Assembly: GCA_944390345.1 (NCBI GenBank)
Contig: CALXPP010000005.1
Coordinates: forward strand, 889 to 64,888
DNA length: 64,000 bases
Source: an uncultured Clostridia bacterium
GTDB lineage: Bacteria > Bacillota > Clostridia > TANB77 > CAG-508
Reading direction: 5' to 3'
The notes beneath the pieces were generated by a model. The model did no database searches, was not told where the DNA came from, and was given only the letters and a program-made list of their open reading frames with translations. This document shows, in pieces, positions 16,098-20,100 of this stretch. A program made the position numbers and the translations under genes. Within the stretch, counting starts at the first letter, position 1. Each line of letters starts with the position of its first letter.

Positions 16098-17924
16098 TTG
16101 AAACAAGCAGAAACAGTTACTTCGCCTTTTGAAAAAAATTTATCTAAAGCAAAAAAATATTTAGCAGCTCAAGGCTTTTCTTCTATAAATAATTTAAGAA
16201 AAGATATTAAAATAATTATTCCTTATTTACAAAGGCTATTCGATAGCACAAAACCAGATTCTGTAGAAGCTTTTGAAAAAATTATTATAGAAGACTGTAG
16301 AAGGTATTCAAAAATAGTTTTTGAAAGTAATTTTGTTTCTGATAATTTTATGGAGCTATTATCTTGTAGATATTTTCAAAAGCATAAAGAAGAATTTGAT
16401 GCTTACTTAGAAAAAGTTCGCAAACCAGATTTTAAATTAGATTCTTCAGATCAGAGTTTTGAAGGTTGTTTAACAAGATATGTATATCTTTTAAATAATT
16501 CTTTTCCAGAATACTTAGAAGATATAAAATACTCTACTTTTCAAGATAATACTGTATGTCAGATTATAAACAATAATAAAATGTCTTTACAAGATAGGCT
16601 AAAAGCTGTTACTGATTATGTAAAAAAAGCTTATCATAATAGAACAACACATAAAAGAGCTATTCAAAATACTAAAATAATACTTTACGGACCTAGAGAA
16701 TATTTAGAAGAAGATGAACAAGATTATATATATGATATCCTTGATGATTCTAAAAAATCAATTTTACAAATTATAGAACAAAGTAAAAAATTAGGTTTCT
16801 ATGAAAATTATACTCAAAAGCAAGAAAATCAATTTAGAATTTTAGGTTTTCCTAATTATGTTTCTAAAAATATTGATCTAACTCAAACTCCTCACTTATT
16901 AGATTCTCTTTCTGCAGAAGATCTTTTAGTTTTAAATAGCTTTTGGATTAATAGATATGCAAAAGAATTAAATAGCTATGCCACAGCTGTATTTACACTT
17001 AAGGATCTAAATTTACTAGAAGATATTTTCTTTAAAGGAATTTCTTCCTACCAAGAAATCTCAGATAAAACTTTAGAAAATGAACTTATAAAATATGGTT
17101 TTTTAAATTATCCAACTACACGATTTATTAAAAAAAGAGAATTTCAAGCAGAAAATTCTAATATTGACAGTATAGAAGGCTACGAAAATCATGAAAAGTT
17201 TATAACTTATTCTTATACTCCTTTAATAGATAGTGCTAAAAAACTTTATGGAAATGAGTATACAGATTATTTTAATTTAGTTCTTCCAGAAAGCCAAAAT
17301 AATATTAGCGAGGATATAGAATTTTTTGTATATTTATACAATCCAATTCTTTCTTCATATTCTATTAAAAATTTATTGCTACAGTCATTATCTGTCGAGT
17401 TTGAAAACTTTCAAAATGCTGGAATTGTTTTAGAAAATTCAAAGAAAAATAGATTATTGCTTGGAATTGATGCTGGTCTAACTTTTCCAATATTTGAACA
17501 TTTAGATTCGCATTCTTTACAAGATTTTTATTTAGCATATAATGGTAATTTAAAAATTCCTATATATGATGGCTACAATGATTTTATTTCACTTACTGGA
17601 GATCATTTATCTACACAATTAGCCTTACCTACTTCTCAAAAACAAGTAGATATTTTAAAACAAAGCTGTAAAAAGAAAAATTATCCTGAGCATAGCAGAA
17701 ATACTATTCAACATTTATATTTTTTAAAGGATAATTCTCGTTTGCCAGACTCTTTAGTAGTTCCAGAAACTAAAGAAACAAAAAAGCGTCTAAGATTACC
17801 TAGAAGATATTTAGACTTAGAAGATAATAAAATATATGTAAAAGATGAAAATGGAGCTTTTATCCCTATTGTTCCAGATTCACCAACAAATTTAATAAAG
17901 GAAGAAAAAGAATATGGAGATTAA
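16098..17924 (+). CDS. Uncharacterized 608-aa cytoplasmic protein, paralog A. The start is revised to the TTG after AGGAGG; the ORF track's ATG at 16056 lies in promoter-like sequence.
   Basis: AGGAGG at 16085-16090, then TTG at 16098. No TM segments and no motif I recognise. It shares FWINR, HLYFLKDNSRLPDSLVVP and YLDLEDNKIY-like blocks with 18229-20100. Confidence 0.55.
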   Translation: MKQAETVTSPFEKNLSKAKKYLAAQGFSSINNLRKDIKIIIPYLQRLFDSTKPDSVEAFEKIIIEDCRRYSKIVFESNFVSDNFMELLSCRYFQKHKEEFDAYLEKVRKPDFKLDSSDQSFEGCLTRYVYLLNNSFPEYLEDIKYSTFQDNTVCQIINNNKMSLQDRLKAVTDYVKKAYHNRTTHKRAIQNTKIILYGPREYLEEDEQDYIYDILDDSKKSILQIIEQSKKLGFYENYTQKQENQFRILGFPNYVSKNIDLTQTPHLLDSLSAEDLLVLNSFWINRYAKELNSYATAVFTLKDLNLLEDIFFKGISSYQEISDKTLENELIKYGFLNYPTTRFIKKREFQAENSNIDSIEGYENHEKFITYSYTPLIDSAKKLYGNEYTDYFNLVLPESQNNISEDIEFFVYLYNPILSSYSIKNLLLQSLSVEFENFQNAGIVLENSKKNRLLLGIDAGLTFPIFEHLDSHSLQDFYLAYNGNLKIPIYDGYNDFISLTGDHLSTQLALPTSQKQVDILKQSCKKKNYPEHSRNTIQHLYFLKDNSRLPDSLVVPETKETKKRLRLPRRYLDLEDNKIYVKDENGAFIPIVPDSPTNLIKEEKEYGD

Positions 17925-18213
17925 TAGCCTAGATTTAAAAAATGAACTCAAAAACAAAAATTATGATAATTGTATTTTTATATTACACAAAAAAATAAAA
18001 GAACTTCTAATTTTAGAAGTACAAAAATATGATAAAGATTTTAAATATAGCAATTTAAATGATTTAAAAAATAAATGTATCGGACTTTTAAACGAAGATT
18101 TATCAAATATTGCAATTGATTTTTATATGGTTTCAATTACTGATGAGAGTCCTTTATATGAACTTTCAATTTTAGTTGAACTTTATGAAAATCTAACCAA
18201 AATAAAAATATAA
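17914..18213 (+). CDS. Small 99-aa hypothetical protein between the two paralogs
   Basis: ORF overlaps the upstream stop by 11 nt. No recognisable domain. Confidence 0.45.
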   Translation: MEINSLDLKNELKNKNYDNCIFILHKKIKELLILEVQKYDKDFKYSNLNDLKNKCIGLLNEDLSNIAIDFYMVSITDESPLYELSILVELYENLTKIKI

Positions 18214-18228
18214 TTTACAGGAGATATT

Positions 18229-20100
18229 ATGAAAATACTTGATTTTGATATAGCCTTAGATAAATCTACTAAGCGTTTTACTATAGAAAAAAATAAAAAA
18301 GCTTATTATTTTCAAAGCTCTATTAAGCAACTTTTTAATTATGTACAAGCACATAGCAAGTCCAAGACTACTGAAGAAGATATAGAAAATTTACTTATGC
18401 AAAAAGTAAGTGATTTAACTGAATATTCTAAAAAGAATTTAAGAATTTTTCCATATGTTGCAAGATTCAATGCAGCAAGATATTTATCTGAGCATCCTCA
18501 AGAGCTTGAAAAAGTTTTAGAGAGCATTAAAGACTTACCATACAACGAAGATTCTATTGAATATGGAAGAAGTTTTGAAGAAGACTGTAAAAACTTAGCA
18601 TTAGAAATACGCGAAGCTTTTAATACTACTATGGAAAACTATAAAAAAACTAATCCTATTGATATTGAATATATGGAAACTCATAGTGTTAAAGATTTAA
18701 AAAAGGTTTTTAATAGAATGTCAATTATTCAACGAAAAAATTACCTTACTGTTATGGGATATGTTAAACAAGGTTTACCTGCCTATTTAAAAGATTTTTT
18801 ACCTAGCTTAGAAAAAGATTGTAAAGAACTTCTTATAGATGCTATAAGGAGTTCTATCGGACATTTAAATGATTTAGGTCTAACAGATAATTATATAGAT
18901 TTTCACAATAAACAAATATCAACTATGCAACCTCAAAATCTACTTAATATAACTGCAGAAGATTTACTTTTAAATCCAAAAGAAGATTTCATAAAAGCTT
19001 TAAAAAGTGAGACTCCAACTACTTCTTTAGAAAATTCAAGTTTAGCTAAATTTCTTGAAAAACAAAGCTTAGAAAATTTAATATTTATGAATACTTTTTG
19101 GATAAATAGATTAGAAAAAGAAACAGAAGATTTCTCTAATTCAATCTTTTATGCTTCTAAACTAAATCTATTTTCTAACTGGAAAAATGGTGTTTTGGGC
19201 TTAAATCAATATTCAGACAAAGATATTACAAATTTATTAATAGGAACAAATCTTCTTTTCTATCCTGTTTCTAGATTTTATCAAGTTAATTTTAGCAAAG
19301 TAAAACAAATTCCTTCTTCACAAGAGAAAAATTTAAAAAGAGAATCTGATAAAAAAGATAGTTTTGTTTTAATAGACACTAGTGATTTAATGAAATCTGT
19401 ATCTAAAAGTTGGAATGGGAGATATGAAGAATTCTTTAATTCAAGATTTCCAAATATGCAAACTTCTTTGCAAAATGATATTTCTCTTTATTTATCTATA
19501 TATAATCCTGTTTTTTTGCAATATGCTCATAAAGATAGAAATATTCAATCAGCTTTAATAGTTTTATTAAACAATACTAAACAAAACTATGGTTTATCTA
19601 GTATTAATAATGCCTCCCAAATAACACAAAAAAAATTACCTATATCTATTGATACTGATTTAAATTTTCCTATACGATTTCATGTATCAACAGAATTGCT
19701 TAAAGATATTTTACAAAATTATAATAATACTAGTCTTTTAAAACTTTACTTGGGTACAGAAGATTTTATAAAAGCTAATGGTAGGTTTGCCACAACTCAA
19801 ATATTGGCTCCTTTTTCAAATGCGCAAAGCAAATATTTAAAAAAAGCAAGTTCATCTATTTCTAAAGCTGATACTGCCTTTAACTTTATAGAACATTTAA
19901 ATTATTTAAGAGATAATAAACACTTTCCTGAACACTTAAAAGTTCCTTATGTAAAACCTAATGGAAAAGTAGAGATGGTTATACCAGAATATTATATAGA
20001 TTTAAATACTGGAGAAATATACCAAAAAGACTTGAAAACAGGAAATTTATTCATAAATTCTGAAAAAACTAAAAGCGAAAACAGTTTAGAAGAAAAATAA
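18229..20100 (+). CDS. Uncharacterized 623-aa cytoplasmic protein, paralog B
   Basis: Shares MNTFWINRLEKE, HLNYLRDNKHFPEHLKVP and YYIDLNTGEIYQKD blocks with paralog A. Contains an R-x4-H stretch (RSSIGH). Confidence 0.55.
   Translation: MKILDFDIALDKSTKRFTIEKNKKAYYFQSSIKQLFNYVQAHSKSKTTEEDIENLLMQKVSDLTEYSKKNLRIFPYVARFNAARYLSEHPQELEKVLESIKDLPYNEDSIEYGRSFEEDCKNLALEIREAFNTTMENYKKTNPIDIEYMETHSVKDLKKVFNRMSIIQRKNYLTVMGYVKQGLPAYLKDFLPSLEKDCKELLIDAIRSSIGHLNDLGLTDNYIDFHNKQISTMQPQNLLNITAEDLLLNPKEDFIKALKSETPTTSLENSSLAKFLEKQSLENLIFMNTFWINRLEKETEDFSNSIFYASKLNLFSNWKNGVLGLNQYSDKDITNLLIGTNLLFYPVSRFYQVNFSKVKQIPSSQEKNLKRESDKKDSFVLIDTSDLMKSVSKSWNGRYEEFFNSRFPNMQTSLQNDISLYLSIYNPVFLQYAHKDRNIQSALIVLLNNTKQNYGLSSINNASQITQKKLPISIDTDLNFPIRFHVSTELLKDILQNYNNTSLLKLYLGTEDFIKANGRFATTQILAPFSNAQSKYLKKASSSISKADTAFNFIEHLNYLRDNKHFPEHLKVPYVKPNGKVEMVIPEYYIDLNTGEIYQKDLKTGNLFINSEKTKSENSLEEK

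Follow-up and report, generated by a model that had tools for sequence, protein, structure and literature searches.

Exonuclease VII consists of a large subunit, XseA, and a small helical subunit of about 80-100 amino acids (aa), XseB, which in Firmicutes are encoded by adjacent and often overlapping genes. By analogy, a similar architecture of one large and one small subunit may be encoded by the three-gene cluster A-S-B of an uncultured Clostridia bacterium (contig CALXPP010000005.1, positions 889 to 64,888 of the forward strand; the whole stretch of 64,000 nt is referred to as the window). No homology to Exonuclease VII was detected, however. XseA carries an N-terminal OB fold recognised by Pfam, whereas the large proteins A and B possess a helical N-terminal half and match no Pfam family or fold.

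Three further systems invite comparison. Eukaryotic RMI1 and RMI2 are a large and a small accessory factor of Topo III, a type IA topoisomerase, and in at least five lineages a large gene of the A/B family follows topB after 9-12 nt, a parallel purely of context. The RMI proteins are built on the OB fold, whereas the present family is predicted to be helical and alpha/beta and shares no sequence similarity with them; unlike the RMI pair, the loci with topB lack a small partner within about 6 kb. The order of secondary-structure elements in the model of A would match the alpha-beta-beta-beta-alpha-beta order of the PD-(D/E)xK fold, and an invariant Asp of the large protein falls at the beta2-beta3 hairpin. 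The residue in strand 3 is nevertheless His468, it is followed by no family-wide Lys or acidic-x-Lys motif, and no member of the fold was matched by Foldseek or by profile. As conserved hypothetical proteins known only from genomes and metagenomes, A and B resemble the DUF families of gut Firmicutes, except that no model of Pfam-A (2025 copy) or NCBIfam (release 20) captures them. Here we describe the cluster as part of a family absent from the libraries searched, whose conserved unit is a large protein with a small acidic partner.

The operon and its products

A, S and B form a single operon on the plus strand between pta and nth, as read from the open reading frame (ORF) list of the window. 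Its features are as follows.

16098-17924, plus strand: gene A, 608 aa, TTG start 8 nt after AGGAGG
17914-18213, plus strand: gene S, 99 aa, overlapping A by 11 nt
18229-20100, plus strand: gene B, 623 aa, starting 15 nt past S, with its own ribosome-binding site GGAG
14919-15914, minus strand: pta, divergent, upstream of A
20141-20803, minus strand: nth, convergent, downstream of B
16037-16065, plus strand: putative sigma-A-type promoter with extended -10, TTGTAT-17 nt-(TG)tTAAAAT, read from sequence
16066-16097, plus strand: short leader containing the ribosome-binding site AGGAGG and ATTATGTAA, which is a variant of the conserved element TTATGTTAA
20106-20138, both strands: G+C-rich hairpin resembling an intrinsic terminator, scoring as such in both directions and common to the operon and nth

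The 608-aa product of gene A is identical in public gene calls; a longer ORF of 622 aa, opening with ATG at 16056, lacks a ribosome-binding site. The initial annotation had described two 620-aa paralogs flanking a 99-aa ORF. The paralogy, the arrangement and the positions are borne out, and only the lengths need correction, to 608 and 623 aa. BLASTP finds 25% identity between A and B over 541 aa (E 1e-40), and the alignment contains all the sequence blocks quoted previously (FWINR; HLxxLxDN..P; YxDL...IYxKD). Judged from this alignment, A and B are true paralogs, old and diverged, as had been proposed. Likewise upheld are the orientation of the cluster, which runs against its neighbours on either side (pta/ack before it and nth after it, all on the minus strand), and the description of A and B as soluble proteins of no recognised family, which extends to S.

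The C-terminal EYGD of A (17906-17924) is kept in the A subclade; the start of S (ATGGAGAT) falls at the same place, and the 11 nt shared by the two genes may be under a dual-coding constraint. No Rfam family matched within the operon or upstream of it.

A family of very-low-GC gut Clostridia

A word-indexed search returned only a dozen relatives. An exhaustive phmmer search with B yielded 239 clusters at E<=1e-3 and 150 at E<=1e-10, mostly 570-700 aa long. All 13 loci from GTDB species representatives belong to metagenome-assembled genomes named 'uncultured Clostridia bacterium' or Clostridium sp., from the guts of human (Hadza), mouse and rabbit; many of the 37 further metagenome loci are labelled human gut. 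The G+C content of every recovered locus lies between 25 and 31%, and at the distances that separate these sequences synonymous sites are saturated. No relative was found among 50,697 phage records (query B) or 72,556 plasmids (query A), nor was any found in IMG/VR. On this sampling of sequences, the family is restricted to very-low-GC (25-31%) gut Clostridia, where it is inherited chromosomally and vertically.

Its members are annotated at source as 'hypothetical protein [Clostridia bacterium]'. For A, S and B, the libraries Pfam-A, NCBIfam, PHROGs and PADLOC (PADLOC-DB v2) returned sub-threshold noise only; the best Pfam matches (DUF604, DUF4860, NAPRTase_N and ArgR) scored 10-16 bits, where the cut-offs are 25-33. 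Among 69 diverse large members scanned singly, no family of Pfam, NCBIfam or PADLOC turned up repeatedly, the sole PADLOC match being a chance hit to AbiEi (E 0.0015), and none did so among 14 small partners; the S protein is without a match in Pfam or PDB. The library scans of large and small proteins likewise contained no match to TPR, LXG, WXG, toxin or antitoxin families. Searched one by one against the PDB sequences, A, S and B were without a credible match; a profile of 124 members retrieved nothing there with E below 0.25, and the matches to SlyA (E 0.25) and, for S, to a radical SAM protein (E 0.056) were dismissed as chance. A search of the literature for an unknown protein linked to topB or mfd returned nothing relevant. 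Measured against these libraries, A, S and B constitute an undescribed protein family, absent from known families.

Structure and conserved residues of the large protein

Structure prediction, which the initial annotation had proposed for A, produced a confident AlphaFold2 model from a 10-sequence alignment, with a mean predicted local distance difference test score (pLDDT) of 87.9 and a predicted template-modelling score (pTM) of 0.88. Long helices, one of them at 403-432, make up residues 1-432 of this model. An alpha/beta domain occupies residues 441-590; its strands span 441-449, 452-457, 465-470 and 486-489, helices such as that at 471-482 lie between them, and three short strands follow at the C-terminus. 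Foldseek found no match to the model in PDB (best E 0.13, template-modelling score (TM) about 0.1) or in BFVD. The C-terminal 236 residues, modelled alone with a pLDDT of 79.7, were also without a match, and neither the whole nor the C-terminal model gave any hit combining E<0.09 with TM>0.2.

Conservation is distributed unevenly along the protein. Across 124 sequences the mean column identity is 0.22-0.35 in the N-terminal 270 residues, 0.49 in residues 271-300 and 0.47 in residues 436-500. Twenty-three positions are conserved in at least 85% of the sequences; they are mostly polar and concentrate in residues 271-300 and 381-500. N285, R286 and K289 belong to the motif FWxNRxxKE, located on one helix, and Y388, F392, D406, Y421 and K424 follow. 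Further on, N440 and G442 make up N-W-G; D458, P464 and H468 lie in hhhGxDxxGxNMPxRLH; Y490, G492 and D495 lie in YxGxxDF; and P511, H539 and P550 complete the C-terminal part. Reduced to a family signature, the motifs read FWxNRxxKE; N-(W)-G...G-x-D-x-x-G-x-N-x-P-x-x-x-H; Y-x-G-x-x-D-F; H-L; P. Within the alpha/beta domain N440, G442, D458, H468, Y490, G492, D495 and H539 are invariant or nearly so. Conserved polar residues in such a constellation speak for catalysis or the binding of a specific ligand, and suggest that the conserved C-terminal part holds an enzyme active site. All 23 positions are kept in A and 22 of them in B (K332 is replaced by G), so B is not a decayed copy.

Motifs of known superfamilies were compared with these residues by eye. 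Those of HEPN, GHKL, actin-like phosphate-1, AEP primase, Pol-beta nucleotidyltransferase, HUH and kinase-like proteins were set aside, their spacing or residues being a misfit, and none had computational support. The R-x4-H stretch to which attention had been drawn in B is conserved neither in A nor in the family alignment; it carries no weight, and membership of HEPN (Rx4-6H in an all-helical domain) was rejected.

Extreme AT bias could mask a known housekeeping family, such as a replication, repair or division factor, that has diverged beyond recognition. We regard this as unlikely, since the 124-sequence profile drew a blank in PDB sequences, the 69 members point to no consistent Pfam or NCBIfam family, and models that are confident for the whole protein and for its C-terminal domain found no structural neighbour by Foldseek.

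The small partner

S is acidic, with a pI of about 5, and S-type proteins in general are soluble, acidic and 97-100 aa long. The hidden Markov model of the small protein matches only ORFs beside a gene of the large family, with a single small membrane-protein gene intervening in one locus (L042). Most commonly the two genes share 8-23 nt, with the small gene at the 3' end of the large; in another locus (L055) the order is reversed, the small gene lying 2 nt upstream of the large. The persistence of the linkage through changes in gene order is good evidence of a functional, and probably physical, partnership. No small gene was found within about 6 kb in the topB and U32 peptidase contexts described below, or in loci L018 and L019. 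Locus L017 contains two large+small pairs, the first closely preceded by a tRNA-like sequence and the second with a split large gene. Large genes split into two ORFs, by frameshift or assembly error, occur at L017 11568-13791, L012 7998-9918 and L016 1378-3427.

A large helical protein followed by an overlapping gene for a small acidic protein might also be taken for a toxin-antitoxin, polymorphic toxin-immunity or quorum-sensing (Rap/Phr-like) pair. We give this very little credence. The variable N-terminus and most conserved C-terminal domain are the reverse of what polymorphic toxins display, no LXG, WXG, TPR or toxin Pfam family was matched, and the sequence of S contains no signal or hydrophobic N-terminus. 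The family is, moreover, single-copy, syntenic and vertically inherited, and many of its members have no small gene nearby.

History of B

A neighbour-joining tree places B and protein P0013 (36% identity) together on a long branch that lies apart from the A clade, and hence B is not a recent tandem copy of A. It is present in locus L021, of the window species, and in L023, whose A is 75% identical; the L023 copy of B shows 79% identity and is preceded by the same 15-nt spacer after S. In L022, with an A of 69% identity, S runs directly into TTAGAAGAAAAATAAAAG (L022 2937-2975), which matches the last codons and the stop of the window B (20083-20100) in 18 of 18 nt. This remnant indicates that B was ancestral to L021-L023 and was deleted in L022, and thus that B is dispensable. 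L022 also carries a gene for an Fe-alcohol dehydrogenase between S and nth. B has no small partner of its own. The layout of two paralogs around a small gene, on which the initial annotation had remarked, is not what is conserved: large+small is the unit, to which B is an optional addition found only in the window species and one close relative.

Genomic context and inheritance

Contexts were compared from ORF calls clustered by BLAST and supplemented with Pfam labels. They fall into eight arrangements, lettered (a) to (h).

In context (a) the large+small pair lies between a divergent pta and a convergent nth, followed by DUF8173, rpe, prkC, prpC and rlmN. This arrangement is found in the window and in L007-L010 and L021-L023, with identities to A of 75%, 69%, 48% and about 30% among the relatives. 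In context (b), found in at least six species, the pair is divergent from mfd, beyond which lies a spoU-type methylase gene. Context (c) is a co-directional row of leuS, two HD genes and topB, followed after 9-12 nt by the large gene and after another 28-54 nt by mfd and spoU; it occurs in at least five lineages, with 33-60% identity to the query P0023, and its topB product has Topoisom_bac and Toprim domains. The remaining contexts place the large gene 18 nt downstream of a family-4 UDG gene on the same strand (d, L019); between a divergent U32 peptidase gene and a downstream row starting with rubrerythrin and rsmE and ending in yicC and gmk (e); after coaD (f); after an MBL protein gene and the small gene, in that order (g); or divergent from HPF or a sortase (h).

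Synteny classes form clades in the neighbour-joining tree, and adjacency to mfd is found on both sides of its deepest split. This argues for a vertically inherited chromosomal gene and not a mobile or defence island. Examination of the neighbourhood, as earlier suggested, showed that the large+small pair keeps fixed sites in related genomes and that B alone is variable. The initial annotation had also raised the contrary prospect of a characterised housekeeping family conserved in synteny: the synteny is there, and no characterised family was matched.

The same annotation was reminded of an accessory or defence-type module, which would amount to an anti-phage island of two sensor or effector paralogs and a small regulator. 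The cluster is indeed compact and autonomous and runs opposite to both neighbours, the presence of B varies among close relatives, and the G+C content of the operon (24-25%) is slightly below that of the flanking pta/ack (about 31%; 26-29% downstream). Even so, we consider a defence role very improbable. Apart from the chance AbiEi hit, PADLOC is empty for A, S, B and the 69 members, and relatives are wanting in phages, plasmids and IMG/VR. Neither flanking or terminal repeats hinting at a mobile element were found in or around the operon, nor an integrase among the window ORFs at the cluster. The pair occupies the same housekeeping locus across 48-75% protein identity and stands beside mfd in other species, synteny groups coincide with clades, and the absence of B in L022 is a simple deletion and not an empty integration site. 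We are correspondingly confident that this is a conserved family of housekeeping type, and not one of defence.

Promoter and leader element

The operon promoter was called by its match to consensus only. A motif of the same kind, TTGnnn-17-TGnTA(T/A)AAT, precedes the large gene in nearly all loci that have an upstream region of their own. In 14 loci, representing nine distinct sequences from contexts (a) and (b) and from L016 and L011, the -10 is followed by NNTTATGTTAA. The 17-nt TATAATNNTTATGTTAA, composed of the -10 hexamer and a conserved, start-site-proximal ATGTTAA(C/G), appears exactly once in each of the 14 loci, always just upstream of the large gene. It was located at the following positions.

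L001 7951-7967: TATAATNNTTATGTTAA site
L009 4091-4107: TATAATNNTTATGTTAA site
L010 7938-7954: TATAATNNTTATGTTAA site
L011 7931-7947: TATAATNNTTATGTTAA site
L013 7943-7959: TATAATNNTTATGTTAA site
L014 5114-5130: TATAATNNTTATGTTAA site
L015 7944-7960: TATAATNNTTATGTTAA site
L016 1335-1351: TATAATNNTTATGTTAA site
L020 7944-7960: TATAATNNTTATGTTAA site

Variants of the leader element occur in L052, L055 and L061, and a weaker one, ATTATGTAA, in the window, from which the exact form TTATGTTAA(C/G) is absent. The element TATAATNNTTATGTTAA is common to species with as little as about 27-30% identity between their large proteins. The leader element begins with ATG and often opens a mini-ORF of 4-6 codons (MLT... 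or MLS...). It could be a start-site context, an operator, or a leader peptide or leaderless mini-ORF.

Other features of the window

Downstream of pta lie three tandem acetate kinase paralogs (11172-14856, minus strand; 399, 398 and 399 aa; 50-58% pairwise identity). The triple ack recurs in L008, and L009 and L010 have one ack and a 115-aa ORF. The intergenic region of pta and A contains a perfect palindrome with 7-bp arms, GAAACAT-N9-ATGTTTC (15956-15978), which overlaps the -10 and spacer of a predicted minus-strand pta promoter (TTGACT/TATAAT, 15989-15961). L022 keeps the palindrome and L023 keeps part of it; it may be a regulator site for pta-ack.

Two other ORFs are without a Pfam match, at 45711-47309 (plus strand, 532 aa) and 60675-62558 (minus strand, 627 aa); tried as relatives of A and B, they proved unrelated (hhalign probability below 1%). 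The latter converges on a gene for a U32 peptidase (58471-60582). The minus strand at 28895-34499 encodes two adjacent family-2 glycosyltransferases, multi-domain paralogs of 607 and 1252 aa with two GT2 domains each. An 896-aa protein (5454-8144, minus strand), encoded near mutL (2312-4054), has leucine-rich repeats near the C-terminus as its sole Pfam match.

Function and significance

The working unit would be a large protein of about 600 aa with an acidic partner of about 97 aa. With genes usually coupled in translation and a putative strong promoter of vegetative type, the two most likely form a cytoplasmic heteromeric complex, and the promoter suggests vegetative or constitutive expression of the operon. 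The large protein would combine a variable helical N-terminal half with a conserved C-terminal half bearing the putative active site. B would be a second paralog, anciently diverged and dispensable, still apparently competent and possibly sharing S.

If a substrate had to be named, we would guess nucleic acid, and DNA above all, handled in a process connected with topoisomerase III and Mfd. Weak pointers to a role in DNA transactions are the tight row of topB, the large gene and mfd, the second, divergent arrangement with mfd, the pairing with UDG and the nth neighbour. Several observations weigh against such a role. The contexts with DNA genes may be no more than one or two ancestral gene orders that compact genomes have retained, other contexts belong to translation or metabolism, and the proteins are not basic. 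Foldseek and the PDB profile searches found no nuclease-like similarity, and the order of elements around D458 and H468, compatible as it is with PD-(D/E)xK, lacks the defining (D/E)xK motif; the family is not assigned to that fold.

A rival reading is that of a clade-specific complex that is no enzyme of DNA metabolism and serves as a scaffold, a regulator, or an enzyme acting on RNA, ribosomes or small molecules, with DNA-repair neighbours amounting to inherited gene order. Genes for translation and RNA functions are frequent neighbours (a spoU-type methylase, rsmE, rlmN, leuS, hisS, HPF, U32 peptidase and NFACT), the long helical N-terminal half would suit a scaffold, and neither nuclease- nor polymerase-like matches were obtained for these non-basic proteins. 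The tight spacing of topB, the large gene and mfd in at least five lineages argues otherwise, as do the recurrence of mfd adjacency in a second orientation and the independent contexts with UDG and nth; the invariant N/D/H/D/H constellation favours catalysis over a pure scaffold. We put the chances of such a complex at slightly short of even. The full statement, that of a clade-restricted large+small enzyme complex with a role on DNA, is offered tentatively, as possible rather than probable.

A more specific form of the DNA-related reading is improbable, though worth stating: large+small could be a two-subunit enzyme of new fold acting on DNA with topoisomerase III, Mfd or both, for example processing structures at stalled transcription or topological junctions. 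Genome maintenance in an entire clade of uncultured, very AT-rich gut Clostridia would then include a lineage-specific component, with TTATGTTAA as its dedicated control site.

Conserved families of unknown function are common; the present one comes with a model, a candidate active site, a partner, a promoter element and an operon context. Biochemical testing should be inexpensive, given the confident model and the small number of invariant polar residues, and the placement of the large gene between topB and mfd provides a concrete, testable entry point. The case also corrects the tempting interpretation of compact opposite-strand clusters as defence islands. Should the link to DNA prove wrong, a clean clade-specific core protein family worthy of a DUF entry would still stand. 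If the full statement is true, a clade of abundant uncultured gut Clostridia of human, mouse and rabbit carries a conserved, apparently constitutive enzyme complex, whose fold and chemistry would be unrepresented in Pfam, NCBIfam, PHROGs, PADLOC and PDB.

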